Of a stretch of 64,000 nucleotides of DNA, positions 8,519-49,349 are shown piece by piece. Under the pieces are notes generated by a model that saw only the letters and a program-made list of their open reading frames with translations, was not told the DNA's origin and searched no databases. Made by a program: the position numbers and the translations under genes. Within the stretch, counting starts at the first letter, position 1. Each line of letters starts with the position of its first letter. Origin of the DNA: Chlorobiota bacterium (GTDB taxonomy: Bacteria > Bacteroidota > Ignavibacteria > Kapaibacteriales > NICIL-2); contig JBDHXF010000003.1 in the NCBI GenBank assembly GCA_039810585.1, positions 93,946 to 157,945 on the forward strand. The letters run 5' to 3'.

Positions 8519-8827
8519 AAGGATTCTGAATGCAATCTGTTATGTGATTTTTTATTCGTGCACGGCTTCGCCGTTTGCATGAGCGAGTGCGAAAAATTGA
8601 AGGCTGTTTCGACTCCACGCGCTGCACATGGATGTGCTTTGGATGAGGAACGCCTTTGTTCAAATATCGGCACTGACAGGCATTTGCGTAGCCTTTCCGC
8701 GGTACTGGCTCATGGCGGCGACCAACCTCTTATCAAGGCACTCTACACCACGTATCGTTTGTGGGTACGAGCCTGAAGGGCAGCGGCCGACAGTACATGG
8801 CGCGTCCGGCTACGAAGTGGACAGGCG

Positions 8828-8865
8828 AAAAAAAAGCCTCTGCGAAGAATCGCGGAGGCTTTTTT
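8828..8865 (-). terminator. Rho-independent terminator of the OmpA-like gene. On the plus strand it reads A8-gcctctgcg-aagaat-cgcggaggc-T6.
   Basis: Seen directly: a hairpin with a U-run, 23 nt after the stop at 8888. Confidence 0.7.
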
Positions 8866-8887
8866 GAATGTCAGACGACCTGAGATA

Positions 8888-9595: not shown

Positions 9596-9596
9596 G

Positions 9597-18859: not shown

Positions 18860-21800
18860 TTAGAAGTTACGGTTCATCTCGCGCCAACGACCGGTTGTGC
18901 CATCGTAAATGAGGGTGATCATGTCGTCGGCATTCATCACAGCATCGGCATTCTTCGACAAGATCATTTTGTTCGCCGCTGTACCGGTGGCTGATTGATG
19001 CTTGATGGTAATGGCGTTGGAACCAACATTGATGAGGGTGATTTGACGACCATCAGTTCCCGATGCAATACTGTTGATGTTGATCGTGGTGGACGCGCTC
19101 ACGCGGAAAACAGAGTTGCCACTCAGTGTCAACGACAAATCTGTTTGATCGGCGCCATAGGCACCGGGACTATTCACACCATAGGTGATAGTTGCACCTG
19201 CTGAAGCCCAGGATAGGGTGCCGCTTCCGTTTGTTGAGAGCATTTGTCCGCTACTTCCGTCTGCTGTCGGCAATGTGTACGTCACATTTCCGGTATTAGC
19301 ACCAGCCTTGAACGAGGTAGTAAAGGTGCGAGCCGGATTGTAAAACTGAAGCTGTCCTGCCGTACCCGATGCGCTGGTATCGATGCTCAGATTACCACCA
19401 CTGAGACGTTCGGAGCCATTCACATGCAGAGTTGCGGTTGGAGTCGAGGTTCCAATGCCAACATTGCCACTTGGGATAAGTAATGCGTAGTTGTTGGTTC
19501 CGCCACTTGCACTAATGTATGCACCGACGTTGGTCGAGCTTGTTCCGGTATGCGTATTCGTCAAGTACAAGCCATAGGTGCTTTGTGTCGTGGTGGAGTT
19601 GGCACCGGACAGGCTGATGTTCAACATCTTCTGTCCGTTCGAAGCGGCTGCTGTCGAAGTCGAACTAAGAGTGAGCGCCGAGTTCGACGACAACGAATTC
19701 CATTGCCAAGTTTGAGCGTAGTCAACGTTGTTGATGCTATTGGTAGCCGTTGCCGCCGTCAAGGCTGAGATAGCGGTTGACGTAGAAGCACTCTGCCACG
19801 ACATATTTCCACTGGCGTCCGATTGCAAGAATTGCCCTGCCGATGGAGCAGAGGTAGGCCAGGTGTAGCTAAGGTTTGCACCCTGCGCCCCGGCTTTGAT
19901 CGACGTTGTAAAGGTTCGTGCCGGGTTATAAAACAAGAGTGAGCCTGCGGTTCCTGAAGCACTAGTATCGATCGTAAGATTGCCGCCACTGAAGCGAGAT
20001 GCGCCGTTAACATGCAGCACTGAAGTTGGTGTCGTTGTTCCTATCCCAACATTACCACTGGGAATTACCAACGCGTAATTGTTGGTTCCACCACTTGCAG
20101 ACAGGTATGCTGCAATGTTTGTAGACGAGGTGCCTGTATGAGTGTTCGTACTATACAAACCGTACGTGGTTTGGGTAGTTGTGGCGTTTGCACCACTGAG
20201 CGATAACGACAATAATTTCTGTGTGTTTGAAGCAGCGGCCGTTGAGGTCGACGACAATGCCAGAGCTGTGTTTGAGCTCAAACTGTTCCATTGCCATGTT
20301 TGAGCGTAGTCAGCATTGTTGATGCTATTTGTTGCTGCGGCTGCTGTTAGACCCGAAATGGGAACCGTTGTTGCTGTTGTCGATGGTGTCACCCAGCTCA
20401 ACGTTGATGAGCCGTTGGTACTCAGTACCTGACCATTCGATCCGTCGGCTGCCGGTAACGTATAGGTAACGTCTACCGATTGTGACTGTGCCTTGAAGCC
20501 TGTGTAGTTGGAGCCACCTGCACTTGGTTCAAAGAAGCGAAGTTCGGATGCTGTGCCGCTATTGCTAAGCAGAACATTCGTGTTGAACGATTTGGTTCCG
20601 TTAATCGTCTGAGCGCCTTCGGTCATCACGAAGCTGGCTGTTGTACCGGCATCAGGAATAGTGTAGGCCCGATTGGCTGCAAGATTTGCCAAGCTAATCG
20701 TTGCTGTTTTAGATGTTGCTTGTCCGTCGTTCAACACCACAGAAGCTGCATTAGAGTTTGATCCGAGTGTAAGCGCACCGGCATTGGTTTGTGCATTGGT
20801 GTTTTCAACCCAAGCCGAGCCGTTCCAGCGAAGGGTGGAGTTCGTTGTTGTGCCGGAAGCGACACTTGCGCCGCCGGTGGCATAGTTCGTCCATGCGCCA
20901 CTTTGATAGAACTCAAATTTTCCGGTGGAGGAGTTATAGCGAATCATACCGTTGACGGGCGACACCGGCTGTTGTCCGGTTGTACCAATCGGAATCGTCA
21001 GCGAAGCATTACCTGGAACGATGGGGTCTGATGCAAGTCCAAAGGTCGGATTGCCTGCTGTACCATCGCCATTCGTGACACTGATCTGATTTGCCGTTCC
21101 CGTCATCGTACGCGCGGTCATGGCTGCCGTTCCATTGCCCGAAGGGAAGCCGGTCATCGTTGCCACACCGGTACCACCGTTCGCCACCGGCAGAATGCCG
21201 CTGACATCGTTAGCAGACGAAAGCGATACTGTTCCTGATGACAACAGACCCGAGGCGTTGTTCTTTACGACGCCGGCAGTTGAGAACGGACTAATCGTTG
21301 GTGCTGAGCCAAAGGTCTTGGAACCGTTGATCGTCTGTGTCCCTTCGGTCATCACAAAGCTGGCTGTCGTACCGGCATCGGGAATAGTGTAGGCCCGATT
21401 GGCTGCAAGATTTGCCAAGCTAATCGTTGCTGTTTTAGATGTTGCTTGTCCGTCGTTCAACACCACAGAAGCTGCATTAGAGTTTGATCCGAGTGTAAGC
21501 GCACCGGCATTGGTTTGTGCATTGGTGTTTTCAACCCAAGCCGTGCCATTCCAGCGGAGAGTTGAATTCGTTACTGTTCCGGCTGCGATGCTTGCGCCAC
21601 CGGTGGCGTAGGTAACCCACGAGCCATTCTGATAAAATTCGAAGCGATTGGATGTGCTGTTATAGCGCATCATGCCGTTCACAGGTGAACCCGGTTGTTG
21701 ACCGGATGTACCGATGGGGATCGTCAGCGACGCGTTGCCTGGAATTATAGGATCGCTAGCCAGGGCAAAGGTCGGATTGCCTGCTGTACCATCGCCATTG

Positions 21801-23014
21801 GTGACACTGATTTGATTTGCAGTTCCCGTCATTGTACGCGCCGTCATCGCTGCGGTGCCATTTCCGGAAGGGAAACCGGTTATGGTTGCGACACCGGTAC
21901 CGCCATTAGCTACCGGCAGAATGCCGCTGACGTCGTTGGTTGACGCCAGTGACACAGTTCCGGATGATAACAGACCGGACGCATTGTTCTTCACAACGCC
22001 GGCTGTTGAAAATGGACTGACGGTGGGAGCAGAACCAAAGGTTTTCGAACCATTAATTGTCTGCGCACCTTCTGTCATTACAAAATTTGCGTTCGCTCCG
22101 GCTTCAGGAATGGTGTACACCCGATTGGCTCCAAGCGTGGAAAGACCAATCGTTGCTGTCTTTGACGTAGCCTGACCGTCGTTTAAAACGAGCGAAGCCG
22201 CATTGGAATTCGAACCAACTGTTACAGTTCCTGCACTGGTTTGCACGTTTGTGTTTTCCACCCACGCCGAACCACTCCATCGAAGAGTGGAGTTATTTGT
22301 TGTTCCGCTCGATACGGAGCCATTGTTCTGCCAGGATAAGTTGCCGGAGGCATCACTCACAAGGTACTGTCCTGCTGCCGGAGCCGTAGTTGGCCAGGTG
22401 TACGTGAGATTTTGACTCTGTGCACCGGCGCGAAGCGCCGTGAAGAACGATCCTGCGGGGTTGGAGAAGCGCAATTGACCTGCGGTACCGGAAGAGGCGG
22501 TATCCAGGAAGATATTTCCTCCACTGATGTGGAGTAGTTGGGATGGAGCGCTCTGTCCGATGCCAATGTTCCCACCGGAGAGTATGCGAAGGCGCTCCGT
22601 GTTGTTGGTAAAGAAGCGGAGGTCGTGAGCGTCGGTCGTTCCTATAAACATACCGGCTGTCGTTCCCGCGTTTCCGTGGAGAGACCACGCAGTGGTCGAG
22701 ATGAGGGTATCCGGATTGATCCAAGCCATACCGGAGCCGGACATTTGCAGCAACTCAGAAGCAGCGCCCGGACTCAGTAAGCCAATTTGGCCGGTAAGTC
22801 CATTCACATGCATGAGCTGCGGTGTGGCAACTCCAAGTGTGGATGGTAGAATTAGTCGGTAAGAACCACTTGCAGAGGATGGAAGTGATATCCACGATGA
22901 ACCGCCGGCGGCACTTCCCAGGCGTAGGGAATCAGCGCCTAACCCTTGAGCATTGCTCAGAGTTGTGCCACATAGCAGCATCAAACATATTATTCCCAGA
23001 GAACATTTATTCAT
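18860..23014 (-). CDS. Giant secreted S/T/G/N-rich repeat protein with phage-tail-fibre-like beta-helical repeats (1,384 aa)
   Basis: A signal peptide is present. An N-terminal roughly 230-aa domain is shared with the adjacent gene (WSLHGNAGTT..FIGTTD..RFFTNNTERLRI). The motif LRFxNPA..F.T...AG....N..YT.P.....GQ.L.....G..SW recurs. It has no T9SS sorting domain. Confidence 0.6.
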   Translation of the reverse strand: MNKCSLGIICLMLLCGTTLSNAQGLGADSLRLGSAAGGSSWISLPSSASGSYRLILPSTLGVATPQLMHVNGLTGQIGLLSPGAASELLQMSGSGMAWINPDTLISTTAWSLHGNAGTTAGMFIGTTDAHDLRFFTNNTERLRILSGGNIGIGQSAPSQLLHISGGNIFLDTASSGTAGQLRFSNPAGSFFTALRAGAQSQNLTYTWPTTAPAAGQYLVSDASGNLSWQNNGSVSSGTTNNSTLRWSGSAWVENTNVQTSAGTVTVGSNSNAASLVLNDGQATSKTATIGLSTLGANRVYTIPEAGANANFVMTEGAQTINGSKTFGSAPTVSPFSTAGVVKNNASGLLSSGTVSLASTNDVSGILPVANGGTGVATITGFPSGNGTAAMTARTMTGTANQISVTNGDGTAGNPTFALASDPIIPGNASLTIPIGTSGQQPGSPVNGMMRYNSTSNRFEFYQNGSWVTYATGGASIAAGTVTNSTLRWNGTAWVENTNAQTNAGALTLGSNSNAASVVLNDGQATSKTATISLANLAANRAYTIPDAGTTASFVMTEGTQTINGSKTFGSAPTISPFSTAGVVKNNASGLLSSGTVSLSSANDVSGILPVANGGTGVATMTGFPSGNGTAAMTARTMTGTANQISVTNGDGTAGNPTFGLASDPIVPGNASLTIPIGTTGQQPVSPVNGMIRYNSSTGKFEFYQSGAWTNYATGGASVASGTTTNSTLRWNGSAWVENTNAQTNAGALTLGSNSNAASVVLNDGQATSKTATISLANLAANRAYTIPDAGTTASFVMTEGAQTINGTKSFNTNVLLSNSGTASELRFFEPSAGGSNYTGFKAQSQSVDVTYTLPAADGSNGQVLSTNGSSTLSWVTPSTTATTVPISGLTAAAATNSINNADYAQTWQWNSLSSNTALALSSTSTAAASNTQKLLSLSLSGANATTTQTTYGLYSTNTHTGTSSTNIAAYLSASGGTNNYALVIPSGNVGIGTTTPTSVLHVNGASRFSGGNLTIDTSASGTAGSLLFYNPARTFTTSIKAGAQGANLSYTWPTSAPSAGQFLQSDASGNMSWQSASTSTAISALTAATATNSINNVDYAQTWQWNSLSSNSALTLSSTSTAAASNGQKMLNISLSGANSTTTQSTYGLYLTNTHTGTSSTNVGAYISASGGTNNYALLIPSGNVGIGTSTPTATLHVNGSERLSGGNLSIDTSASGTAGQLQFYNPARTFTTSFKAGANTGNVTYTLPTADGSSGQMLSTNGSGTLSWASAGATITYGVNSPGAYGADQTDLSLTLSGNSVFRVSASTTININSIASGTDGRQITLINVGSNAITIKHQSATGTAANKMILSKNADAVMNADDMITLIYDGTTGRWREMNRNF
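19240..20400. repeat. In-frame tandem DNA repeat, period about 579 bp, 2 copies
   Basis: The protein repeat IS(G/A)LTAA(A/T)ATNSINN.DYAQTWQWNSLSSN...LHVNG...YNPARTFTTS.KAGA is seen twice. Confidence 0.7.
20600..22320. repeat. In-frame tandem DNA repeat, period 726 bp, about 2.3 copies; copies 2 and 3 are nearly identical
   Basis: ORF-track fragments 20673..20885 and 21399..21611 translate almost identically, as do 21120.. and 21855... The protein repeat runs NSTLRW.G.AWVENTN...FYQ.G.W..YATGGAS. Confidence 0.8.
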
Positions 23015-23316: not shown

Positions 23317-26300
23317 TTATTGAATGCGGGTGTACTTCAACATCGAGAGCTTTTTCACAACAGTGGCGGTTCCACTGGATGTACTTTGGGCCCATTGAAG
23401 TTTGATGTTGCCTGCATTGGCACCAACGGAGATCACTCCGCGAATGTTGACAGAGGTAACTCCATTGGTAATGGTAATGGCGCTCGTAGCAGTGCCACTG
23501 GTTCGGAGCCACTCGTGTACGTGACTCGTATTCCCCGAATTAAGATTTGAGCACATATTCAGCGCCATAGTAGAGCCGGTGGGAATGGAAAACGCACACT
23601 TGATTCCACCGGTCGAGCCTGTTAGATCGAGAAGAACATCGACAAACCATTGTTCACCGTTGTTAACCGGGAATTGGAGATCATCGTCGTCCTGCAAGGA
23701 GGTTGACGAACTGAGCGACTCATCCGCAGCTTTTACTTTAAACTGGTCTTTGCCAATGTTAGTCCAGGTCATCGTGCCGGAACCGTTAGTGGCCATGAAG
23801 TCGCCGTTATTTCCATCGGCCGCCGGAAGCGTGTAGTTGACGTCGGCACTCTGCGCTTGTGCACTCAGAGAGCTATAGTTAGATCCACTTGCACTTGGCT
23901 CGTAGAATCGAAGTTGACTTGCCGTACCACTGTTGCTGAGTGCTAGATTACCCTGAACGTCAAGCTTGGACGATAGCGTTGGCGATTGGGTGTTGATTCC
24001 GACCGCACCATCAGATTTAATCGTCATCCGTGGCAAGAAACCCGCGCCGCCTCCAACGGGAGTTGTTGAAAAGATAATGCGTCCCGGAACGTTGCCGGAG
24101 CTGGGGGTACTGTCCACTTCCGAGGCAATATCGGCGCACGACAGATAGCTTCCTCCAAAGTAGGCGCGCCAACGGTACTGTCCGATTTCATCGTTGATTT
24201 GTACATCCGAGTAGCCCGCACCGTAAGTGCCGCGAGACCGAATGAGTTCAAAATGTGGTCCGCCAATGGCAGTTTCCGTCACTCCCGACATCGTCGCGTA
24301 ACTCTCGTCTCCGCCTTCCATAAAGAGTCGATTGGGTAAGCCGGAATACGACGTGGGTAGCGAGCTTGCCGTGTACCCAATTCGCAGCGACCCGTCTGTT
24401 CCAAAACTACCCACTTCCGCATTGTTGACTCGAAAACGCAGAGCGTAGTTATCTGTTGTACCGAGGAAGGGAGCTGCAGCACCGCTATTACCACTCAGCA
24501 ACCAAGAAGTGGAACCCATTGTAGCCCAGCTCAATGTACCTGAGCCATTTGTGCTGAGAACCTGTCCGGAACTTCCGTCCGCACTTGGTAAGGTGTAGAC
24601 CGTACTTCCGGCCGCAGCAGCGGGCGCGAAACCAACAAACCCCGAAGTTGCACCGCTCAACCGAAATGTACCTTTGACATCCAGGGTGGCACCGGGGGAG
24701 TAGGTATTGATTCCAATGAGCGGCGTCGAGGTGTAGATGCCACTGCCATAGATGGTGTTGGCGATACTCATGTAATTGGATCCGGTCGTAGCAGGGCCGA
24801 TACATGTTGAGTCACCGATAAAAATGTTTTTACTACCACTCGTGTGCGACACGCCCGCGTTATGACCAAGGAGCACGTTTTTATCTCCGGATACCAGAAA
24901 ATATCCGGCCGAGGAACCGATGCCTGTGTTGTAATTGCCGGTATTGGCATTGAGCGCAACAATACCAACAGCCACATTGTCTTGTCCGCTGATATTCTGA
25001 TCTAAAGCCACAAATCCCACCGCAACGTTGCGCATACCCGTCGTGTTCTGGAACATCGCTTGATATCCAAGTGCAACGTTTGCAGACCCGGCGTTCGACA
25101 AAGCCGCTTGGTACCCCATAATAGTGGACTGATTACTTTGGTTGAGGTGAATGTACCCATTGGTCTTATTGATGGTCATACGTTCAGTATTCGATGTCTT
25201 GAACATCAGGTCCTGCGCATCGGTTGTCCCGAGAAAATTGGTGCCAGACGTTGTCCCTGCGTTGCCACTGAGTGACCACGATGTAGCACCATTGCCGACC
25301 CAGCTTAACGAGCCACTACCATTGGTGCTGAGTACTTGACCGTTGGATCCATCGGCTGCGGGCAGGGTGTAGCTAACGTTCGCCGTATTGGTACCAGCCT
25401 GCAACGATGTGTAGAAAGTCCTTGCCGGATTATTAAGCATAAGCTTTCCTGCCACGCCGGTAGAAGCTGAGTCGATAAGGACATTACCTGCTACGTGTAG
25501 ACGCTGTGTAGCAACCGGCACTCCAACACCAATTTTACCGGACGATACGGTTGTGCCGGAGCCGCTCACCGATGTACCGAAAATCAAATTGCCAATGCTG
25601 AGTTGATTGCTCCCTGTTGCGCTTGGCGCATCAATGTCATACCCGATTATAATGTTATTCGAGCCACTCGTTAAGGCATCGCCTGCTTTGTACCCCAGCA
25701 GAATATTGTTGGATCCAGTTGTCAATGCGTAACCTGCTTGGAAGCCAAGGAGTGTCGAGTTTGCGAAGGAAAAGGTAGACGTTCCTTGTCCCGCGCTCGT
25801 CCCGACCAGAGTGTTATTTGCCCCGGAGATATTGTAGTATCCCGCATTGTAACCCAGGAGGGTGTTGTTGTCGGCTGTCGCATTACGTCCGGCATAAGCA
25901 CCCACAAAGGTCGAATTTTGAACGTTGGCCGATCCACCCGTATTGGCACCCACGAATACGGAGTATCCCACAGTAGTTGAGGTCTTTCCGGCTCCGGCAC
26001 CAAGGATGGTATTGTAGCCACCGCCAGTGTTGATATCACGTCCGGCTTCATGTCCCGCATAGGTATTTACCGATTGCGAGCCATTGCTCTTGCCTGCACC
26101 CGATCCAAAGAAGCTGTTATATGCACCGCTACTAAGATTCAGTCCCGATTGATAGCCGAAGGTCGTATTGAACGAGCCGATATTGATGAGTCCTGAGGGT
26201 GAGTTGTACACTTTCAAAACCAGATCGGAAGAATCAAGGGTGCCGAGAATGGCGGAACTTCCGCCGAGATTATTGCCGGACAGTGACCACGCATTAGCCA

Positions 26301-27024
26301 CGGCGGCGGCATCTACCCAGCTCAGTACTCCGGCTGAGGACGTACTCAACACATTCCCATCGGACGGTGTAGATAGTGGCAGGGTGTAGTTTATCGTAGC
26401 ACTTTGATTGCCGGCTCGAAACGAGCTATAGAAAGTTCGAGAAGGATTGGAAAACCGAAGTTCAGCCGCGTTACCTGAACTGAGAGTGTCGAGGTACAAG
26501 TGACCACCGCTTAGATGGAGTAACGTGGACGGATTGTTCGTACCAATACCGACGAAGCCACCGGGCTGAATACGTAGTCGCTCTGTTGCATATGTCTTCA
26601 TGACAAGGGGCTGAGAGTCTTGCGTTCCCAAGAACGAAGTGCCCGGCACGGTACCGGCATTTCCTACCAAAGACCATGCTTGTTGCTGAACAATACTATC
26701 GGGTTGAATCCAGCTCAGCGCGCCGGACGACATGCGAAGGAGTTGCGAATCAGATCCGGGACTCAGAAGATTGAGCTGACCACTCGGTCCGTCAACATAC
26801 AGGAGCTGTCCACTGGACGAACCGAGGTTTGGAGGCAAGAGCATTCGATAGCTTTGCGTAGCTGCGGAAGGGAGAACGATCCACGACGACCCACCATTGG
26901 CGTTTCCAATTCGAATGGAGTCGACGCCAAATCCCTGTGCCCAGAGTAGCGTTGGTGCACAAAACACCAGAGCCAGCAATCCATGCTTGTAGTTGCTCAC
27001 CGTACGTCCTATGTAATATCCCAT
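23317..27024 (-). CDS. Giant secreted phage-tail-fibre-like beta-helix repeat protein (about 1,235 aa), paralogous to the adjacent gene
   Basis: The signal peptide is at the internal M (GLLALVFCAPTLLWAQG). It shares N- and C-terminal domains with 18860..23014. The centre holds GYNAG/GYQAG..NTTG.NN..VG head-repeat arrays, as in tail fibres and trimeric adhesins. Confidence 0.6.
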   Translation of the reverse strand: MGYYIGRTVSNYKHGLLALVFCAPTLLWAQGFGVDSIRIGNANGGSSWIVLPSAATQSYRMLLPPNLGSSSGQLLYVDGPSGQLNLLSPGSDSQLLRMSSGALSWIQPDSIVQQQAWSLVGNAGTVPGTSFLGTQDSQPLVMKTYATERLRIQPGGFVGIGTNNPSTLLHLSGGHLYLDTLSSGNAAELRFSNPSRTFYSSFRAGNQSATINYTLPLSTPSDGNVLSTSSAGVLSWVDAAAVANAWSLSGNNLGGSSAILGTLDSSDLVLKVYNSPSGLINIGSFNTTFGYQSGLNLSSGAYNSFFGSGAGKSNGSQSVNTYAGHEAGRDINTGGGYNTILGAGAGKTSTTVGYSVFVGANTGGSANVQNSTFVGAYAGRNATADNNTLLGYNAGYYNISGANNTLVGTSAGQGTSTFSFANSTLLGFQAGYALTTGSNNILLGYKAGDALTSGSNNIIIGYDIDAPSATGSNQLSIGNLIFGTSVSGSGTTVSSGKIGVGVPVATQRLHVAGNVLIDSASTGVAGKLMLNNPARTFYTSLQAGTNTANVSYTLPAADGSNGQVLSTNGSGSLSWVGNGATSWSLSGNAGTTSGTNFLGTTDAQDLMFKTSNTERMTINKTNGYIHLNQSNQSTIMGYQAALSNAGSANVALGYQAMFQNTTGMRNVAVGFVALDQNISGQDNVAVGIVALNANTGNYNTGIGSSAGYFLVSGDKNVLLGHNAGVSHTSGSKNIFIGDSTCIGPATTGSNYMSIANTIYGSGIYTSTPLIGINTYSPGATLDVKGTFRLSGATSGFVGFAPAAAAGSTVYTLPSADGSSGQVLSTNGSGTLSWATMGSTSWLLSGNSGAAAPFLGTTDNYALRFRVNNAEVGSFGTDGSLRIGYTASSLPTSYSGLPNRLFMEGGDESYATMSGVTETAIGGPHFELIRSRGTYGAGYSDVQINDEIGQYRWRAYFGGSYLSCADIASEVDSTPSSGNVPGRIIFSTTPVGGGAGFLPRMTIKSDGAVGINTQSPTLSSKLDVQGNLALSNSGTASQLRFYEPSASGSNYSSLSAQAQSADVNYTLPAADGNNGDFMATNGSGTMTWTNIGKDQFKVKAADESLSSSTSLQDDDDLQFPVNNGEQWFVDVLLDLTGSTGGIKCAFSIPTGSTMALNMCSNLNSGNTSHVHEWLRTSGTATSAITITNGVTSVNIRGVISVGANAGNIKLQWAQSTSSGTATVVKKLSMLKYTRIQ

Positions 27025-27237
27025 ACAGAACCAATGTACATGGCAGTCACCTTCGTGTTCGCCACAAACACGCACCCCTTCTTCTAGGGTGCTCAGTCTG
27101 CCCATGCATCACAAATAGTGCGCCAATTATTGGAGTGTAATGTCCACGATAAGCAATCATTCATCATCCTCTCGACCCACCGAGAAGAGGAAAAAAGGGA
27201 AGAGCGGTGGGTAGTACGGGACGTCCAGGAAGTCAGA

Positions 27238-29110: not shown

Positions 29111-29195
29111 CCAGCAGCCTTGCGGAAATCGGCCGAAAGTTCAAAAACGTAGAAAATTGAGCGAATTTCATTCACTTACCTAGGGGTTGACAATA

Positions 29196-30530
29196 ATGTC
29201 ATCATATCATGCGGAGCAGACCGACGGTTTGCAATTCAAGAACACATTTGTCCATTATGCTGTGTTCGTTGCCATCGGCGTCGTCGTGGCGGTGCTCTTC
29301 CAGATGTTTGTTTTAAGTAACATCGTTGAAGGCTTCGTTGTATCGCAGTTCAAACCGGACGGTTCACAGGGGAAACTGACACAGTTCAAAGGCGTGAAAG
29401 CTATTGCAACGCCGGACGGTGAAAGTCATGCCGGTCAGGACGTTAAGAGAGAGTATATCAAACCGGACTTCATTTTCGACTTCAGTAGTATGAAACGTGA
29501 AGACAAGGTTCAAGGATATTCCAAGGAGCCAGGTGAATGGGTGGTAAAGGCTCCGAAACTTGGTGAGGAAGCAATCTATCTTGAGCCATACGGTTTCTGG
29601 ATTTTGTCATTCGATGCCGGGTTTGTCGCTGCAATCTTAATCACGCTGATTTTACCGAGTGGAATCGGTTTTGTGTCCATCAAGGTTGAACGTGAAATTC
29701 ACAACAACAAAGCAAAAGTTCGTCTGCAAACAGGCTTCTCTGAGGAAATCGTTGAACTATTGGCCATGCCCGATGCCAAACTGGCCGAGCTTGGTGAAAC
29801 AGATCGCAAGCGCATAACCGACTTCTTCCGTGTAATCTGGAATCGCACAACACCGGAAGATCAAGGCGATACCTTCGGTTCACACCAAGTGGTGCATTTC
29901 GAAGACGTGTTTGATAAGAACACCGATTTGGTTGCGTTCCGCAACAATGGCTTGTACATCCGTATTCGCGAACACTTCAGCGATTTCGTGGAAGGTGAAA
30001 TTGAGGACATTAAATCAGCACACGAGTGGATGTCCAATCACTTTAAAATTTTCAACGCGTTGCGTTTGTACATGGCTCACCACTTTACAGAGCAGTATTC
30101 AAACAACGTGACAGGATTCGCCTACGGTGGTGCTGCACTTCTGATTATCGCGGTTGGTATTCGTGGTTTGAAGTTCATTCCTTCCACTCGTCCTTCGCTC
30201 ATTCTCTTCGCCATCCTCCTTGAATTCTCCATGTTGGCTTTGCTGGCTCTTACCTTGTTCTATACGGAAGAAGAAGAGCGTATGGACAAAATGCTCAAGA
30301 AGATGGAAGATGCGAGCCGTTCGCAGCTGGATGTACTTCAAGAGCAGCAGCGTGACATTCGCACCTTTGTCGACAAGCTCATTGGCGAATCGTCTGAGAT
30401 TATCAAGCGTCGCGTTGAAGAAGCTCTCTCCGAGCACCTGACTAACGACGTTGAAATGCGCAAGCAACTCTCAGCTGCTATTCTGGAAAACCTTCGCATC
30501 GATTTCAAAGACAGTATTGATCGTCGATAA
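29196..30530 (+). CDS. Hypothetical polytopic membrane protein with a C-terminal cytoplasmic coiled coil
   Basis: About 444 aa. One N-terminal TM helix, a TM pair around residues 130-165 and a TM cluster around 300-350 are predicted. A charged heptad-rich tail follows (EEEERMDKMLKKMEDASRSQLDVLQEQQRD...). The ORF track starts at a TTG at 29187, but the ATG at 29196 is more likely. No recognisable family. Confidence 0.5.
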   Translation: MSSYHAEQTDGLQFKNTFVHYAVFVAIGVVVAVLFQMFVLSNIVEGFVVSQFKPDGSQGKLTQFKGVKAIATPDGESHAGQDVKREYIKPDFIFDFSSMKREDKVQGYSKEPGEWVVKAPKLGEEAIYLEPYGFWILSFDAGFVAAILITLILPSGIGFVSIKVEREIHNNKAKVRLQTGFSEEIVELLAMPDAKLAELGETDRKRITDFFRVIWNRTTPEDQGDTFGSHQVVHFEDVFDKNTDLVAFRNNGLYIRIREHFSDFVEGEIEDIKSAHEWMSNHFKIFNALRLYMAHHFTEQYSNNVTGFAYGGAALLIIAVGIRGLKFIPSTRPSLILFAILLEFSMLALLALTLFYTEEEERMDKMLKKMEDASRSQLDVLQEQQRDIRTFVDKLIGESSEIIKRRVEEALSEHLTNDVEMRKQLSAAILENLRIDFKDSIDRR

Positions 30531-30546
30531 CAGTTTGACTATATTC

Positions 30547-30581
30547 GGGCTCCACCATAGGGTGGAGCCCGTTTTGTTTTT
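30547..30581 (+). terminator. Rho-independent terminator: gggctccacc-atag-ggtggagccc followed by gttttgttttt
   Basis: Seen directly: a perfect 10-bp stem and a T-run, 17 nt after the stop. Confidence 0.8.
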
Positions 30582-30689
30582 ACGCAGTCACCTTCCTCGT
30601 TGCATGAATATTTGCTACGTTCACCAATAATTCCTGAGTACCAACACGGTGTTGACGTGTTACTCATTAGTGAACCGATTGTTCGTGCC

Positions 30690-33600
30690 ATGCCAGCATT
30701 TTTCCGTCTCTTCCTGTTTGCCTTCTTCGTATTGGGCCTTTGCGCTTCCGCACAACAGGCACGCGTGTCGTCGTCTAATGATGATCATGGCTGCACCATT
30801 GACCTTACAAACCTCAGTACGGCCAACGATGCCATCGAACAACCTCTTCGCGCACTCATCGCCCATCCCGAACGCACTGACTCGATTGAAGCAGCGATAG
30901 AACGACAGGTTTGTCGGCGCTTCTTCATCGTCGTCCCTTCCTCCGGCGCGCTCAGCGCTACGCTCCAAAACATACAAAGCGTTGAACGTACTCTGGGATC
31001 TGATGGCTCTGCTTTGCATCACACGATTGGTGTTGACATTCGCAGATTAGGAATCGTACGGGGAAATTCAGTAGCCGTTATCGTCCTCCATTGTTTTGAG
31101 AGTTCGACGCTACGGTCGTCAGTGCGGGTGCTGAATTCCTGCACCGTTAAGGTTCGATTCGGGGATTCGCTTGCGAGGGGGTCCGGTGGCCTGGTGCATC
31201 GCTTTCCGATGCAAGTCTTAAATAGCGAGTATCTGCACGGTGATAGCCGTGACGTGCGATTAGCCGCCATGTCAGCCGCACTTCGCCTCATAACGAGTGA
31301 TTCCACGCAACTTCCCATCGAAGTGAGCACGCACAAGGACGGCGTTGCTCGCATTCGAGGCGTCGATATCCTTTCCATTCACCCTTCGTGGCAAGGTCAA
31401 GCGTGTTCGCTGTTGCATTTGCGGTATAAGGGACAAGAGCAATGGCTCGCCTGCAGCGATAGTGTGCTTTTGCCGACAACGGATCTGTATTTCCGGGGTA
31501 GTCATGCTTCGGGAGATACCACGTGGTACAGTCCGTTTTCCAACAACTGCGTGTACTATCTTACGCTAGAAGCAGACCATTCGTCCAATCGCTACACTCT
31601 GCGAACATCAGGCGGAACGTCCACAATTCTCAACTCACTCGTTATCGACCGACATTGTGAGGAAGAACACGAGTACGTGCAAGGATATTTCCGCGGATCG
31701 GATGCCAACGATTTCTTCTTAACGGAAACCGCCGAAGGGGAGAAGTGGGTGTGGAGGATGGTGAATCGCTATACACCGTTTGAACATCGCCAAGTTTTTG
31801 TCACGAACGACGCCTTGAACGATTCCGTTCATGTACACATTGAGTACGAGTCGCTGAACGACCTGCCGACCGTGAATCCGGACAAAAGGGTAGTTCTTAC
31901 GCTGAACGGAGACGTTATACATGACGATACATTCGATGGTGCGACGGAAAAGCGACTCGATATCAATGTGCCACGAGAAGTGTTCCGCGGCGGATTGTGT
32001 GATCTTCGATGTGTGTCCATCGGCACCGATACGACTGCTCTAAACTACTCTGAATCGCAAGCCTTTGATTACTACTCTATACGCGCTCGCAGTGAAGCCT
32101 ATGCCATCAGCGGATCGCTGGAAGGCACTGTCGAAGCACCTCCTTCGTCAGCGCTTCAGGTACGATTGCTACGGTCTGAACGTTCAGTAGTTCTGGATAG
32201 TGTCACTCACCAATGGCAGATCGTCAGCGGTCAACCGGGTTTGAGTATGATGCTTCAGGTGCGAAATGGCAGTCGTTCCTGGTCGTCTTGCATTATAAAC
32301 GGGAATACTCTTCTTTCGAGCGCCCTTCGGGCTTGCTCCATATTTGTTTATCATCCTGCCACGGATTCTACCGAGTGGTGGACAGGCAGTAGCTCCGACC
32401 GCGACGGTGCTTTGATTCTCCAGCGTGTACATGAGGGTGACTATGTAGTGGTTCTGGCTAATGACGACCGAAGTTTAGCGCCACAGATCCAGTCAGCTTT
32501 AAGTGGAGTCGGAATTACCAACAGTGCTCAAAAAGTTGCTACCAATGTGTACTATGCCTATCGCCGCATTCAAGGTGGCGCACAGGCGGTGGAGCATTCC
32601 GATGCGACAGAGTTAAGCGATCAAGTGTTTGTGGACGATGCATCAGTCCACGCTTGGCAGGCTCTTGTTCCACTCGCAGCCGGAATGCAGCACCTGATGA
32701 TAACCTCAGAAGATAGTGTTGAGCTCTGCGGACTTCGCCGCATTTCGGATGTTGATTTGACGGATACAACGCTGTCGGCTGATTATATCGTCATCACGCA
32801 TCACACCTTCGAGTCGGCAGCTCGAGACTTAGCTACATTCCGAGCAGGCCAGGGACATCGAACACAAGTGGTGTTTGTTGATGATATCTACCGTCAGTTT
32901 GGCGACGGACAAAAGAGTCCGCACGCAATTCGAAATTTTCTCCGCTATGCCTATGACCATTGGTCGGCTCCGCGCGTTCATGACGTGCTGTTGTTTGGAG
33001 ATGCGAGCTGGGACAATCGATCCATTCGTAGCGGCGACACGATGACGGATTATGTTCCGAGCTACGGCAAGCCCGTGAGTGACGTCTGGTTCAGTTTTGT
33101 CGACGGATCCGATGAATTGAGCGATTTCAATGTTGGTCGTTTGCCGGTACAAAACCTCCGGCAAGCACAGGACTTGGTACGAAAAATCAAGCGGTATGAC
33201 TCTTTGCCTCCCGATTTGTGGTGGAAGAGTTTCCTCTTCGTGTCCGGAGGGCAGACCGAAGCAGAGAAGTTGGATTTTCTTCAGTACAATCAGTCGTTTG
33301 AAAACCAAATTTACTCTGACGATTATTTTTTCCGTTCCAATTCGGTGTGCGGTGATACCACCAATGCCGCCTCGTATTTCCAGGTGAACAACGCCGGCTA
33401 CTCGGTTTCTAATCACATCAATAAAGCGGTTAATGGGCAGGGAGTGGCGTGGATTAACTTTATTGGGCATGGAAGTCCGACACTCACTGATGTGAACGAC
33501 TGGACAGACAGCTCACTAGCCAACGTCGATCGACCATTTGTGCTCGCCACCTTGTCATGCCAAACGGCAGCCTTTGCCGAAGCAGAAGTGTCGTGTATCG

Positions 33601-36479
33601 ATGAGAATTTCCTTTTGGCAAAGGACAAGGGTGCCATCGCCGCGATTGGTGCAACCGGATATGGAATACCGGACGTGCAGTCTATTGTGATGACGAAATC
33701 TTTCTTCGAGCTTTCAACTTTTGGGTCGCGCAACTTGGGTGACATCCTCAGCAATTCAACTGCATTGATTGCAACTTTCAGCGATATCACCTCGCACGAT
33801 GTCTACCTACAGAGTTGCCTTCTTGGCGATCCACTGAGTCGTATTCCCTTCGATACAGTTGCTCATCCGGTTGTACTCGAGCGTAGCCTCCGTATTGAAG
33901 ATAGGAGTGGCAGCCAGTATTTGAGTGACGATCAAGATTCTGCGTTTGTTCACGTTGAGCTGTTTAATGCGGGAGTCCACGGAGATACAGCCACGGTCTT
34001 TTTCATTCATACCTTTCAGAACAAGACGGATACGCTTGTGCGGAGTTTTGATGATGTGTGTATGACAATGCCTACTGACGCGGCATTTTCCATTTTTGGA
34101 CAGAATGGCATTCATACACTTCGTATCGAGGTTCAAGCAGATCCGCGATGGAGTCCATCGTCACGGTTTGGATCGGTGTACACAACGTCGTTCAATGTCT
34201 TCTCTCCGCGCCCGTTGCCAATCGATCCCTTTCCGTATTGGAATGTAAGTGCCGAACATCCGCTGCTGCGCGTGATATCAACCACGAAAGAAGGAGATAG
34301 CGTTCGCTTCGAAGCACAGTTGCGACAAGACTCTGTAGTGCTAGATTCTGTCGGCTACGACAACAATTCGGCGTTGCTTGTCGATGAATGCTTCGTGCAG
34401 TGGCAGCCACCGCTTCACCTCCAAGAAGGGCAGCGATACACTTTCGCGATTCGGTCCCGAAGCGAATTGAGTGGTAAAGAGAGTGCTTGGTTGGAGATTC
34501 CATTCAACGCAGGAGCGGACTCAGACCGCATGTCGATACGCATCCGGAACACGGTACGTCTTGATTCCGCTGCATGGACAAAGTCAGATCGATGGCGCGT
34601 AGACACCACCGGTTCGGAGCCACAGTACGTTTTGCATGACGAGCTTCGCTACGAAATGAGATCCTCGGTAGGATATGGGTACTATGACAGCACCGGCCAT
34701 CTTATCATCCCGATTCAACCCACATTTAAGATTGCCCTGAACGGTGTTACCTTCGGTGATCGTGATGACGTGCGCGGCTTCAATGTCCGCCTGGTCAATA
34801 AACGCACAGGAATGGTAGAGGCAGTGCGAAACTTCGACTGCTTTGTGGACCGTGATTCGTGCGATACCTGTTTCAACGGCTCCGGTAGAACCTTGGTTCG
34901 TTTTCTGCGCGATTCCGTTCCACAGGATGATTACCTCTTCCTGGCTATTTGTGGAAATACCTACGGAGACGTGTTTGTAAACAGAGATCTTGATTCCTTG
35001 CATGAAGTGCTCAAGCGCTATGGATCAGTAGTTGCCGATTCCGTCGTTCCTCCACATTCGTATTTGATGATAGCGGCTGCCGACGATTCGACGCAGCTGG
35101 TTGAGCGCATTCGATTGGATACGCTCAGTCCTCATGCGGCGGAGGATACCGTGTTTGCCTCCGGATCCGTTGCACTACACCCGGATAGTGGTTGGGTGAC
35201 CAGTCCTGTGTATGGACCGGCAAGGCGCTGGACGCGGGCTCAGGTCGAGGGCGAATTATCAGACAGCGTAGCGGCTTTAGCAGTGACCGTCTTCGGTTTG
35301 CGCGACAATTTTTCCGAACCACGAGTTGTCATGTCTGACACTGTTGCGGAGATGGATTTGTCGTCCATCGATGCCACTCGGTATCCCTATATACAATTTG
35401 AGATCCACGTCGTACGGCGAAGCCTGCTCCGGGATCCGGCTTTCCAGGCAATTCGTGTAGATCTCGAACCACTGCCGGAATTAAGTGTTGTTCCGTCGTC
35501 CTACGTGCTAGATGCAGATAGTGTGTTGCGCGGTGACACGATTTCCATCGTAGCCGCGGCCAAGCGAATCTCTCCACGAGCGGTCGTGGACAGTGCCATA
35601 CTCGTCATGCAACGAAACCCTGTGAGCAATACAGGATTTAGCAGCGTAAAGAGTTGGGCGTTCACACAGCCGGGTGATACCGTGACTCTGAACGTGGGAG
35701 ACACAGTTAGCACCTTGCAATTCGGAGACTACACTCTCAACAGTTTTGTTGTCAACCCCGACTCACTTATCCCCGAACTGTATCGGTTCAACAATAGTGC
35801 GCTGCGATATCAAACGGTGATCAACGATACAGAGGCACCACGACTTGAGGTTCACATTGACAGTTTGCCCACGTACGACGGCATGACGGTTGCACGCCAA
35901 CCACTCATTCGATGCCTCATGCGTGACAATTCGCGGATGCCAATCGTGGATTCCTGGCACCTGAGCGGACTCGTGAACGACTCCGCGATCGAGCAGCAGC
36001 CGGCCTATCGTTTTGTGGGAAGTGCGGATATACAGAGTCTCGCGTTTGCTCCGCCGGAAACTCGAGCCTACGTGGAGTTTCGACCAACCTTGCATAACGG
36101 CACGAATACTCTTGAGCTGAATGCCGTTGACTACTTTGGGAACGAGACCGACAGTGTACTGCATCTTTATGTTGATAAAGATTTGTCGGTACAAAAGTCA
36201 AACGTGGTTCCCAATCCGATGAACGAATCGGCACGGATTTACTACACTCTGTACGGTCCATTTGAGCGACAACTCGTCACCTTGGAAATCTACGACGCCC
36301 GTGGTGAACGTGTGCGCAGCATGCTCATCAATGCTCGCTTGGGAACGAACGTAACGATTTTTAATGGCTGTGATGATGAAGGGCGCAAACTCCTGCAAGG
36401 CTCGTATTACTACCGCATTTTTGCATCGCAAAGTGGGTCGATTGGTTCGGAGAATGGCATGTTCATTATTCTTCGTTGA
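30690..36479 (+). CDS. Giant peptidase C25 family (gingipain/PorU-like) protein with a T9SS C-terminal domain (about 1,930 aa)
   Basis: The signal peptide is MPAFFRLFLFAFFVLGLCASAQQ. The C25 core is YIVITHHTFESAARDLATFRAGQG...VVFVDDIYRQFGDG..SPHAIRNFLRYAYDHW. A catalytic His (WINFIGHGSPT) and Cys (LATLSCQTAAF) are present. The C-terminus reads VVPNPMNESARIYYTL...LEIYDARGERV...GSYYYRI, which is CTD-like. Confidence 0.6.
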   Translation: MPAFFRLFLFAFFVLGLCASAQQARVSSSNDDHGCTIDLTNLSTANDAIEQPLRALIAHPERTDSIEAAIERQVCRRFFIVVPSSGALSATLQNIQSVERTLGSDGSALHHTIGVDIRRLGIVRGNSVAVIVLHCFESSTLRSSVRVLNSCTVKVRFGDSLARGSGGLVHRFPMQVLNSEYLHGDSRDVRLAAMSAALRLITSDSTQLPIEVSTHKDGVARIRGVDILSIHPSWQGQACSLLHLRYKGQEQWLACSDSVLLPTTDLYFRGSHASGDTTWYSPFSNNCVYYLTLEADHSSNRYTLRTSGGTSTILNSLVIDRHCEEEHEYVQGYFRGSDANDFFLTETAEGEKWVWRMVNRYTPFEHRQVFVTNDALNDSVHVHIEYESLNDLPTVNPDKRVVLTLNGDVIHDDTFDGATEKRLDINVPREVFRGGLCDLRCVSIGTDTTALNYSESQAFDYYSIRARSEAYAISGSLEGTVEAPPSSALQVRLLRSERSVVLDSVTHQWQIVSGQPGLSMMLQVRNGSRSWSSCIINGNTLLSSALRACSIFVYHPATDSTEWWTGSSSDRDGALILQRVHEGDYVVVLANDDRSLAPQIQSALSGVGITNSAQKVATNVYYAYRRIQGGAQAVEHSDATELSDQVFVDDASVHAWQALVPLAAGMQHLMITSEDSVELCGLRRISDVDLTDTTLSADYIVITHHTFESAARDLATFRAGQGHRTQVVFVDDIYRQFGDGQKSPHAIRNFLRYAYDHWSAPRVHDVLLFGDASWDNRSIRSGDTMTDYVPSYGKPVSDVWFSFVDGSDELSDFNVGRLPVQNLRQAQDLVRKIKRYDSLPPDLWWKSFLFVSGGQTEAEKLDFLQYNQSFENQIYSDDYFFRSNSVCGDTTNAASYFQVNNAGYSVSNHINKAVNGQGVAWINFIGHGSPTLTDVNDWTDSSLANVDRPFVLATLSCQTAAFAEAEVSCIDENFLLAKDKGAIAAIGATGYGIPDVQSIVMTKSFFELSTFGSRNLGDILSNSTALIATFSDITSHDVYLQSCLLGDPLSRIPFDTVAHPVVLERSLRIEDRSGSQYLSDDQDSAFVHVELFNAGVHGDTATVFFIHTFQNKTDTLVRSFDDVCMTMPTDAAFSIFGQNGIHTLRIEVQADPRWSPSSRFGSVYTTSFNVFSPRPLPIDPFPYWNVSAEHPLLRVISTTKEGDSVRFEAQLRQDSVVLDSVGYDNNSALLVDECFVQWQPPLHLQEGQRYTFAIRSRSELSGKESAWLEIPFNAGADSDRMSIRIRNTVRLDSAAWTKSDRWRVDTTGSEPQYVLHDELRYEMRSSVGYGYYDSTGHLIIPIQPTFKIALNGVTFGDRDDVRGFNVRLVNKRTGMVEAVRNFDCFVDRDSCDTCFNGSGRTLVRFLRDSVPQDDYLFLAICGNTYGDVFVNRDLDSLHEVLKRYGSVVADSVVPPHSYLMIAAADDSTQLVERIRLDTLSPHAAEDTVFASGSVALHPDSGWVTSPVYGPARRWTRAQVEGELSDSVAALAVTVFGLRDNFSEPRVVMSDTVAEMDLSSIDATRYPYIQFEIHVVRRSLLRDPAFQAIRVDLEPLPELSVVPSSYVLDADSVLRGDTISIVAAAKRISPRAVVDSAILVMQRNPVSNTGFSSVKSWAFTQPGDTVTLNVGDTVSTLQFGDYTLNSFVVNPDSLIPELYRFNNSALRYQTVINDTEAPRLEVHIDSLPTYDGMTVARQPLIRCLMRDNSRMPIVDSWHLSGLVNDSAIEQQPAYRFVGSADIQSLAFAPPETRAYVEFRPTLHNGTNTLELNAVDYFGNETDSVLHLYVDKDLSVQKSNVVPNPMNESARIYYTLYGPFERQLVTLEIYDARGERVRSMLINARLGTNVTIFNGCDDEGRKLLQGSYYYRIFASQSGSIGSENGMFIILR

Positions 36480-36484
36480 TACAT

Positions 36485-37039
36485 ATGACTCATCGAGGAA
36501 CTCCTTCACTCATCATTCTTTGCCTTGCGAGTTGTTGCCTTCTTCACGCCCAACAAATACGGTTTGAGAGCGATCCTCTGCCCTTCATTCTCAAAGGATG
36601 GGTTGCTGCACTTGCTGTTGGTTCCGAAACGTGGAGTGTACGTATTCTCGATGCTCGAGTTGACAAACCACAGTGGCTTCTTCCGTCGTCCGTCGATAAC
36701 AACCGCATTCACTCGGACGCAATTCTTCTGGATTACAGCATTCCTTCCGTCACATTCCTGAAGACCGACGGAATGGCGTTGAGCGTTGGACTCGTTCGAT
36801 GGGCCGGAACGATTCGAAACAAGGAGCTGGACGAAACGAGAGCCTACGTTTGCGAGTTAGTCAGTGTAGGCGGCGCACTGTTCTATTTTCTCGATTCCCA
36901 CTTTTACCTCAGTCCGTGGGCGGGTTTGCACCTCTTGGTAGCCGGCGATAGAGAGCTCTCATTTTCCCACGGAAGCTATTCGATTCCACGTCTAAATCCC
37001 GAAGCTAGCGTTCGCATTGGCTATCGTTTCTCAATCTAA
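36485..37039 (+). CDS. Small outer-membrane beta-barrel-like protein (about 185 aa)
   Basis: A signal peptide with Cys is present (LASCCLLHA). The sequence alternates hydrophobic residues and ends RIGYRFSI with an aromatic residue, typical of OMPs. It overlaps the stop of the C25 gene. Confidence 0.4.
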   Translation: MTHRGTPSLIILCLASCCLLHAQQIRFESDPLPFILKGWVAALAVGSETWSVRILDARVDKPQWLLPSSVDNNRIHSDAILLDYSIPSVTFLKTDGMALSVGLVRWAGTIRNKELDETRAYVCELVSVGGALFYFLDSHFYLSPWAGLHLLVAGDRELSFSHGSYSIPRLNPEASVRIGYRFSI

Positions 37040-49144: not shown

Positions 49145-49349
49145 ATAACCTCCGTTTGTGATTGGGGGAAAAGTAGCGAAGAACACTTTAACAACAAATG
49201 TCAAGTGTCACTAGTTCGTGTCACGATTTGAATTATTTCGACAAAAGATGAAATAAACACTGGAATGTGTACGAGAAATCTGACAGTGCAGGCAGCGAAG
49301 CTGCGCGCGAATCATGAGTATCTGTTTTTAGGATCGTATGCTCTAAAGT

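Follow-up and report, generated by a model that had tools for sequence, protein, structure and literature searches.

[quoted passage not shown] Nearly all that is known about the processing of T9SS cargo comes from Porphyromonas and Flavobacterium; the attachment complex consists of PorU, PorV, PorZ and PorQ, PorZ presents the glycan acceptor in Porphyromonas, and pairing of the porU and porV genes is common, not universal. PorU cleaves the C-terminal domains of cargo proteins and joins the cargo to anionic LPS (PMC10202324). Our preferred reading, to which we give a probability of about 0.4, is that the protein would be a T9SS-exported, PorU-like processing or attachment enzyme working with surface glycans, that is, a sortase paralogue or specialised variant and not a member of a canonical PorU-PorV pair.

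Gene and domain architecture

The reading frame is open over positions 30600-36479 on the + strand, and translation from the ATG at 30690 gives a protein of 1,929 aa (gene at 30690-36479, stop codon included; hereafter the giant), so the ~1,930-aa open reading frame of the original prediction is a real gene. The public record of this protein (P0001) has a GTG start 11 codons further upstream, at 30657, and hence a length of 1,940 aa. From the ATG, the N-terminus reads MPAFFRLFLFAFFVLGLCASAQQ, a typical signal peptide (aa 1-23, 30690-30758, as read from the sequence) with cleavage likely near ASA-QQ, and the N-termini of all orthologues are hydrophobic.

The question whether extra domains flank the protease was addressed by structure prediction, which placed a prodomain-like domain, two ILEI domains, CARDB/FN3-like domains and further beta-sandwiches around it. 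From the N- to the C-terminus, and all on the + strand, the signal peptide is followed by a gingipain-type prodomain-like domain that resembles the Kgp prodomain (~aa 24-160, 30759-31169), a beta-sandwich region (~aa 185-540, 31242-32309; AlphaFold secondary structure with mean pLDDT of 87, and Foldseek against PorU 6ZA2), a first ILEI/FAM3/PANDER-like domain (~aa 541-675, 32310-32714), the C25 catalytic domain (aa 690-1060, 32757-33869), CARDB-like and Ig/FN3-like beta-sandwiches (aa 1068-1280, 33891-34529), a second domain of the ILEI/FAM3/POMGnT1-stem type (aa 1283-1480, 34536-35129), three beta-sandwich domains (aa 1487-1830, 35148-36179; AlphaFold, mean pLDDT of 88), the last of which is common to PorU, and a probable T9SS C-terminal sorting domain (CTD; aa 1833-1929, 36186-36476).

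The two ILEI/FAM3/PANDER domains (PF15711) were identified by HMM matches above the gathering score and by their beta-beta-alpha fold. They flank the catalytic domain, one on each side, with several Ig-like spacers besides, and among orthologues just one domain is better conserved than the second of them. The prodomain-like domain and both ILEI/FAM3 domains had been overlooked in the original prediction. To our knowledge, the other proteins with ILEI domains are FAM3 and POMGnT1 of animals. FAM3 proteins bind GlcNAc and other sugars, as does the stem domain of POMGnT1, whose GlcNAc-binding residues are Arg129, Asp179 and Arg207 (PMC9802357). In the second ILEI domain of the giant, the Arg129 equivalent alone is conserved; the Asp179 equivalent is Gly in the giant and acidic in about half of the family, and the Arg207 equivalent is not conserved.

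The last ~100 aa had been proposed to form a T9SS C-terminal domain, and they align with the C-terminal region of PorU (profile domain E-value of 1e-20), though the giant alone scores 12.7 bits against a cut-off of 23 with the curated Por_Secre_tail model (models for T9SS type A sorting domains: TIGR04183 and PF18962). Positions 1704-1918 of the giant-family profile align with PorU 930-1153, and an HMM of the pre-CTD beta-sandwich (bs5) matches canonical PorU proteins.

Catalytic domain

Judged by its sequence, the giant is a multi-domain cysteine peptidase of MEROPS family C25. The Pfam model Peptidase_C25 (PF01364, clan CD) matches aa 699-1050 over the full domain (profile positions 1-372 of 374) with an E-value of 6.7e-70 and a score of 236.6 bits against a gathering cut-off of 23, and the domain has the caspase-like alpha/beta fold. 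The intact dyad that had been predicted, with His before Cys, is present: His927 (33468-33470) lies in the motif GHGSPT (aa 926-931) and Cys957 (33558-33560) in LSCQT (aa 955-959). The two residues align with the GHGGP and TATCD motifs of PorU and with the His at chain position 211 and the Cys at 244 in RgpB (1CVR), which we take to be its catalytic residues.

These observations bear on a highly improbable reading, that the giant is mainly an adhesive or non-catalytic surface protein whose C25 domain has a scaffolding role. The many Ig-like and lectin-like domains are in keeping with such a role, as is the quick divergence of the non-catalytic parts among orthologues, but conservation within the protein is highest in the catalytic domain, and His927, Cys957 and the surrounding motifs are invariant in alignments of 24 and 50 divergent family members.

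Relationship to PorU, PorU2 and gingipains

PorU is the closest characterised relative of the giant (profile E-value of 1e-56 versus 7e-18 for RgpB) and the best match among solved structures. Sequence scores are 194.7 bits for PorU versus 66.4 bits for gingipains, and Foldseek over the whole architecture gives an E-value of 2.8e-27 over 1,075 columns for PorU (6ZA2) versus ~1e-18 for gingipains.

Curated models set a limit to this likeness. The search with the NCBIfam PorU profile (NF033707), proposed together with the original prediction, gave a match at 208.7 bits, below the cut-off of 420, and its best stretch covers 342-733 of the 1095 profile positions. On the same model, six canonical PorU proteins match from end to end, at 612-1,279 bits. 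These six are 1,143-1,399 aa long, and the giant is, as had been stated, much longer than characterised PorU. With the N-terminal model NF052324 (putative type IX secretion system sortase PorU2), the giant reaches 197.1 bits where 450 are required, and it matches profile positions 322-866 of 879, leaving the first 320 positions unmatched. By these two models the giant does not classify as PorU or as PorU2. Of 24 sampled family members, all match the PorU2 model and 23 match the PorU model; the best of the family on NF052324 reaches an E-value of 3.2e-125, or ~420 bits by conversion from E-values, which is below the cut-off of 450. Our literature searches found no paper describing PorU2.

A possible, if somewhat unlikely, alternative is that the giant is a gingipain-like degradative protease, secreted or at the surface, which would be exported by the T9SS as a zymogen, would then lose its prodomain and would use its ILEI and Ig-like domains to target glycoproteins or polysaccharide-rich matrices for nutrients. 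The multi-domain, adhesin-like layout would suit such an enzyme, but the sequence is far nearer to PorU than to gingipains, and Pfam searches found no Cleaved_Adhesin or haemagglutinin domains in the giant. RgpB Asp163, presumably the S1 residue, aligns with a non-acidic position of the family, in a region where the alignment is poor, and this too counts against a gingipain-like protease.

A large family of ~1,900-residue proteins

An exhaustive search returned ~800 strong relatives of the giant; among the best 150 cluster representatives, the median length is 1,894 aa and almost every protein aligns end to end. Word-based homologue searches returned 15-18 proteins, even with a profile, so the size of the family was seen only by the exhaustive search. 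Because the ~1,900-aa layout is common to at least 150 clusters at 50% identity, the giant is not a lineage-specific oddity, contrary to the original prediction of a lineage-specific variant. The family of ~1,900-residue proteins that includes it is distinct, large and uncharacterised, and there are hints that it extends over Kapabacteria (the source genome), Ignavibacteria and candidate division KSB1. Both members whose names were retrieved are labelled "hypothetical protein" by NCBI. Targeted literature searches found no description of the family, and nothing relevant was found for C25 combined with ILEI or for Ignavibacteria with PorU.

Genomic context

Single-copy orthologues lie at the same position in six syntenic Kapabacteria-type genomes (L001-L004, L007 and L008). 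Since it occupies one fixed place, flanked by housekeeping genes, in all six of these related genomes, and since its adjacency to an upstream gene (up447, below) is conserved, the giant looks like a core-genome gene, not an accessory one, and a single-copy gene so placed, with a deeply conserved neighbour, would be unusual for a nutritional protease. Other features favour a degradative enzyme: the orthologues have diverged rapidly (31-49% identical versus 73-80% for the neighbouring ValRS), the L008 orthologue is split by a frameshift, and in L088 two C25 giants lie 7 kb apart, which suggests an expansion by paralogy, as is typical of cargo.

The neighbour that recurs beside the giant is up447 (29187-30530, + strand), a 447-aa membrane protein with four predicted TM helices, as read from the sequence, and a C-terminal coiled coil. 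It is 72-88% identical across the six syntenic loci, and homologues of 47-52% identity lie directly upstream and on the same strand in L092-L094, L097, L098, L100, L102 and L106, so that the adjacency holds across lineages whose giants are just 22-27% identical. No Pfam or NCBIfam family matched up447. As a helical membrane protein, it was rejected as a candidate PorV. The original prediction did not mention this conserved neighbour. An intrinsic-terminator-like hairpin (30546-30581, + strand; 11-bp stem with 9 G-C pairs, followed by a T-run) lies in the intergenic region between up447 and the peptidase gene.

Related giants adjoin, after or among them, genes for glycosyltransferases, Wzm/Wzt, Wzi/Wzz or DegT/Bac_transf/PglD. 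Seven more metagenome loci have a GT9 and WecG pair just upstream of the giant, and an eighth has WecG alone. This neighbourhood is a feature of related subfamilies and is absent at the locus studied here; its recurrence speaks for an enzyme linked to the envelope or its glycans and is a further point against a degradative protease.

PorV and other T9SS genes

As originally noted, porV does not adjoin the giant. The whole 64-kb window yielded no porV, and none was found beside the giants of the six syntenic loci, of the P0002-P0006 and P0186 contexts or of 29 metagenome loci; searches with tblastn for canonical PorU and PorV in the examined loci and the window returned only the positive-control loci L089 and L090 and the giants themselves. 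In a positive control, PorV (PF19572) comes immediately after the canonical PorU P0015. The lack of a porV neighbour is also what would be expected of a degradative protease. No T9SS core genes were found within the window, which does encode a second protein, the LTD protein at 14351-16057, with a CTD homologous to that of the giant; this speaks for use of the T9SS in the source genome.

We consider it improbable that the giant has replaced canonical PorU as the working T9SS sortase in Kapabacteria, Ignavibacteria and KSB1, with the ILEI domains taking the role of PorZ. PorU is its nearest characterised relative, and the two have catalytic, pre-CTD and C-terminal domains in common; the gene is conserved and single-copy in the six related genomes; the window has CTD-bearing cargo and no canonical PorU or PorV within its 64 kb; and the lectin-like domains could bind an LPS-type acceptor. 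Against replacement, the score misses the PorU cut-off by half, there is no PorV-like partner nearby, and an essential component would hardly be expected to carry a frameshift such as that in L008. The word-based searches that returned giants also returned canonical PorU proteins with FlgD_ig-type CTDs (P0008, P0011 and P0014); canonical PorU, in taxa that may be others, therefore exists in metagenomes alongside giants, which also argues against replacement.

A small downstream gene

Downstream of the giant, the original prediction had placed an overlapping, beta-barrel-like outer-membrane protein of 185 aa. The reading frame is real and encodes a small secreted protein of 184 aa (36485-37039, + strand, ATG start; alternative TTG start at 36476); the ATG start leaves 5 nt between the C25 stop codon and this gene, so that the two do not overlap, and the barrel is plausible but has no family match. 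A signal peptide is present, and the protein is one of a conserved family of 19 members, most of which end in Phe and all of which share the motifs ExDxLP, YLSPW..LH and NPEAS. From these sequence features, a small outer-membrane beta-barrel is plausible; a crude hydrophobic-moment periodicity scan for beta-strands was uninformative. Searches of Pfam and NCBIfam gave no match even when lenient E-values were allowed, nor did a profile search of PDB, and PorV, PorG and other known outer-membrane families were rejected as identities on this basis.

The gene is present in L001, L002, L007 and L008 and missing from L003 and L004 among the six syntenic genomes, family members P0026, P0028 and P0031 lie in unrelated genomic contexts, and no homologue was found in the 29 metagenome loci with a giant. 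With this distribution, an obligate partner of the giant was rejected. The gene is probably co-transcribed with the giant here, and we regard its product as a separate small envelope protein, co-located by chance in part of the lineage.

Proposed function

For a PorU-like processing or attachment enzyme working with surface glycans, the anatomy of the giant suggests the following course. The protein would be exported to the periplasm by Sec, and its gingipain-type N-terminal prodomain would probably keep it latent. Once on the cell surface, it may act as a PorU-like peptidase or as a transpeptidase via a thioester on Cys957, while the ILEI domains could hold a cell-surface glycan, as acceptor or as anchor. 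A distinctly doubtful extension is that the giant might be a single-polypeptide T9SS attachment enzyme of non-Bacteroidia lineages of the Fibrobacterota-Chlorobiota-Bacteroidota (FCB) group, in which the ILEI domains would capture the glycan acceptor, the job of PorZ, with no adjacent PorV-type partner and possibly with coupling to up447.

The family joins a PorU-like catalytic core to a gingipain-like prodomain and two lectin-type ILEI domains, and it is a widespread and uniform PorU-related family, apparently of Kapabacteria, Ignavibacteria and KSB1, outside the model T9SS organisms. A glycan-directed sortase would show how the attachment of proteins to the surface is organised beyond model organisms and would assign a function to the bacterial ILEI domain; a large secreted protease would still give a useful annotation for hundreds of unnamed proteins.

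Comparison with known systems

The giant and PorU both have a C25 domain with aligned His and Cys, N-terminal beta-sandwiches arranged alike ahead of that domain (Foldseek, 1,075 columns), and a homologous last beta-sandwich and T9SS CTD. Unlike PorU, the giant has two ILEI domains, a domain like the gingipain prodomain, and beta-sandwich domains of the CARDB/FN3 and other types; it is ~770 residues longer, only its catalytic and C-terminal parts match the PorU profile, and no porV adjoins it. With RgpB and Kgp (MEROPS C25.001 and C25.002), it shares a dyad that aligns with RgpB His211 and Cys244, and it has an N-terminal domain similar to the Kgp prodomain and a probable T9SS CTD, whereas it has two ILEI domains and no haemagglutinin/adhesin domains, the alignment shows no clear S1 Asp, and its setting is that of environmental Kapabacteria and Ignavibacteria. 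Compared with FAM3 and the POMGnT1 stem (PF15711), the ILEI domains of the giant sit inside a bacterial peptidase and keep, of the three GlcNAc-binding residues, only the equivalent of Arg129.

Gene and catalytic domain of the giant peptidase

An ORF at 30600-36479 (+) encodes, from the ATG at 30690, a protein of 1,929 residues (hereafter the giant; gene 30690-36479 (+)) with a typical signal peptide by sequence (aa 1-23); in the public record of the same protein (P0001) the annotated start lies 11 codons further upstream, at a GTG. In Pfam, Peptidase_C25 is matched as a complete domain at aa 699-1050 (E 6.7e-70) and ILEI at aa 1362-1463 (29.7 bits; cut-off 27), while the C-terminus gives weak hits to FlgD_ig and CHU_C. 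His927 and Cys957, which lie in the motifs GHGSPT (aa 926-931) and LSCQT (aa 955-959), align with GHGGP and TATCD of PorU, the sortase of type IX secretion (T9SS), and with positions 211 and 244 in the chain of RgpB, the catalytic dyad of gingipains. Both residues are invariant across divergent relatives (alignments of 24 and of 50 sequences). The original prediction of a C25 protein with an intact His/Cys dyad thus held, also where it had said it could fail, in the superposition of the two residues on C25 catalytic positions. The giant is a secreted C25 enzyme built of several domains, and its dyad is intact. Gln directly follows the likely signal-peptide cleavage site both in the giant (ASA-QQ; 30690-30770) and in the downstream 184-aa small ORF (HA-QQ; 36485-36560), which fits the Bacteroidetes ‘Q-rule’ (PMC5837995).

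Domain architecture and protein family

Two AlphaFold models were computed from a 50-sequence alignment, covering aa 24-1160 (mean pLDDT 87, pTM 0.89) and aa 1051-1929 (mean pLDDT 88). As to whether extra domains flank the protease, a question raised with the original prediction, the models gave a beta-sandwich region at about aa 185-540 (by secondary structure) and three further beta-sandwiches at aa 1487-1830, the last homologous to PorU. The giant also carries a prodomain-like region and two FAM3/ILEI-type lectin-like domains, ILEI-1 and ILEI-2, on either side of the catalytic domain. Among orthologues, conservation is highest in the catalytic domain (43-61%), followed by ILEI-2 (30-60%), and lowest in the prodomain-like region and ILEI-1 (16-34%).

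Word-based searches found few relatives of the giant; an exhaustive HMMER search using aa 690-1889 as query gave 11,302 protein hits with E<1e-3, of which 797 had E<1e-30. Among the 150 top-ranked cluster representatives the median length is 1,894 aa, with most between 1,750 and 1,990 aa, and in nearly every case the alignment spans the entire 1,200-residue query. Domain HMMs made from the family alignment detected the catalytic domain in all 150, ILEI-2 in 148, the C-terminal domain in 142, ILEI-1 in 122 and all four together in 115. Source names seen among members were ‘hypothetical protein’, from Ignavibacteria and candidate division KSB1. The giant belongs to a big unnamed family of which large size is a trait, so the suggestion of a lineage-specific PorU variant was not sustained. 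Literature searches yielded nothing on this family, PorU2 (a putative sortase model of NCBI) or the combination of C25 with ILEI; the giant is a C25 enzyme related to PorU whose set of domains is unreported.

Genomic context

The window ValRS is 80% identical to that of ‘Chlorobiota bacterium’ genomes and 73-75% to that of Candidatus Kapaibacterium genomes, so the genome is Kapabacteria-like. The gene order, lysine 6-transaminase (-), up447 (+), giant (+), small ORF (+; not in every genome), ValRS (+) and thiolase (+), is repeated in six related genomes (L001-L004, L007, L008), where giant orthologues are 31-49% identical versus 68-88% for flanking genes. In L008 the orthologous gene is frameshifted into two ORFs (about 8057-8276), which reflects either an error in sequencing or assembly, or a pseudogene. 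Between the up447 and giant genes lies a strong terminator-like hairpin (30546-30581).

The upstream gene, up447 (29187-30530 (+)), encodes a 447-aa protein with four predicted transmembrane helices and a C-terminal coiled coil, and matched no known family. Its conservation exceeds that of ValRS among Kapabacteria. A metagenome scan provided 29 giant-bearing loci, among which up447 homologues (47-52% identical; just upstream of position 10001 in each locus) directly precede the giant on the same strand in six independent lineages (L092; L093/L098; L094; L097/L102; L100; L106), most of them with a divergent lysine 6-transaminase gene upstream; their giants are only 22-27% identical to that of the window. 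Of the lineages whose upstream sequence is present, three or four (L099/L103, L101, L105 group) lack this neighbour. The Chloroherpeton-like locus L029 has, between its up447 homologue and ValRS, no C25 giant but a different secreted protein of 879 aa (7185-9824 (+)).

Surface-glycan genes repeatedly adjoin related giant C25 subfamilies. In the P0003-like subfamily (L086, L109-L115, L117), GT9 and WecG glycosyltransferase genes precede the giant (in L117 only WecG); four of these loci additionally have a GT4 gene. P0004 (L091) is located after DegT, Bac_transf, PglD-like and GT4 genes; P0005 (L087) adjoins Wzi, Wzz and UDP-glucose dehydrogenase; and P0186 (L088), which is devoid of ILEI domains, has GT2 and Wzm/Wzt genes around it and a second C25 giant 7 kb away. 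The contexts of P0002 and P0006 showed no surface-glycan gene link.

The small downstream ORF

The small ORF starts at 36476 (TTG) or 36485 (ATG) and ends at 37039 (+). The predicted gene behind the peptidase is therefore present; the predicted overlap disappears with the ATG start, which leaves 5 nt between it and the stop codon of the peptidase gene. The protein has a signal peptide, and its family (n=19) shares sharply conserved motifs (ExDxLP, YLSPW..LH, NPEAS.K.G..F), with Phe as the final residue in most members; no relatives were found in Pfam, NCBIfam or the PDB. This small envelope protein is real but unnamed. Behind the giant it occurs in L001, L002, L007 and L008. A role as dedicated peptidase partner was rejected: L003 and L004 have no room for it, none of the 29 metagenome loci has a homologue, and distant relatives adjoin a TonB receptor and SbcCD, a Cys/Met-metabolism PLP-dependent enzyme (Pfam Cys_Met_Meta_PP) and an MFS transporter, or an unrelated Por_Secre_tail protein. 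Invariant polar residues (E28, D30, R53, K61, N73, S143, H149, N171, E173, S175) are unusually numerous for a small barrel with a purely structural function, and may hint at enzymatic activity or ligand binding.

T9SS signs in the window

The presence of T9SS in Chlorobiota and in Ignavibacteriota is compatible with the literature (PMC11285876). No T9SS core gene scored above any threshold within the 64-kb window. A protein of 568 aa that contains Lamin Tail Domains (14351-16057 (-)) is likely T9SS cargo, because its terminal domain is homologous to the giant's C-terminal domain (E 6e-11, HMM made from the giant family). The C-terminus of a 904-aa beta-propeller protein (46490-49204 (-)) weakly matches Por_Secre_tail; the layout of this protein recalls the propellers and C-terminal domain of PorZ, and the PorZ model did not match it. 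Two very large adjacent ORFs, both devoid of the giant-type C-terminal domain, encode 1,384 aa (18860-23014 (-); BppL_N and phage depolymerase C-terminal sandwich matches) and 1,262 aa (23317-27105 (-); no family matched).

Relation to PorU and gingipains, and proposed role

The family profile matched PorU 6ZA2 with 194.7 bits (E 1.4e-56) and the gingipains RgpB and Kgp with 66 and 45 bits, and PorU ranked top in Foldseek (1,075 aligned columns). On the curated NCBI models the giant scored below cut-off for both PorU (208.7 bits; cut-off 420) and PorU2 (197.1; cut-off 450). Sampled relatives matched the PorU2 model in 24/24 cases and the PorU model in 23/24, none reaching either cut-off (bits converted from best E-values); six canonical PorU proteins gave 612-1,279 bits end to end on the PorU model. 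The profile check proposed earlier therefore returned a PorU relative, yet not PorU by the available defining tests. Homology searches found no PorV homologue in the window, as already noted for the neighbourhood, nor in any giant-carrying locus; directly behind P0015, one of the six canonical PorU proteins, lies a Pfam PorV gene. That the giant completely replaces PorU is possible, if quite improbable.

We favour, at a probability of roughly 0.4, a PorU-like processing or attachment role involving a surface glycan, because of the affinity to PorU, the core-genome-like fixed position of the gene, the deeply conserved up447 neighbour, the lectin-type domains, the glycan genes adjoining related subfamilies, and the transfer of cargo to anionic LPS by PorU (PMC10202324). 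The giant would be exported by T9SS, remain latent as a zymogen and act at the cell surface. Binding of GlcNAc is known for the POMGnT1 stem and for FAM3 proteins (PMC9802357). Against this role stand the failed PorU cut-offs, the missing porV neighbour, the fast divergence of orthologues, one of them frameshifted, and the conservation of only one of the three POMGnT1 sugar-binding residues. The main rival, a degradative protease targeted to glycan, is somewhat less probable.

In its catalytic and C-terminal parts the giant is PorU-like: the family profile matches PorU in two separate parts, once in the catalytic domain and again in the last sandwich together with the C-terminal domain. It has 1,929 aa versus 1,143-1,399 aa in the six canonical PorU proteins, and its predicted prodomain, which also speaks against the favoured PorU-like role, is gingipain-like.
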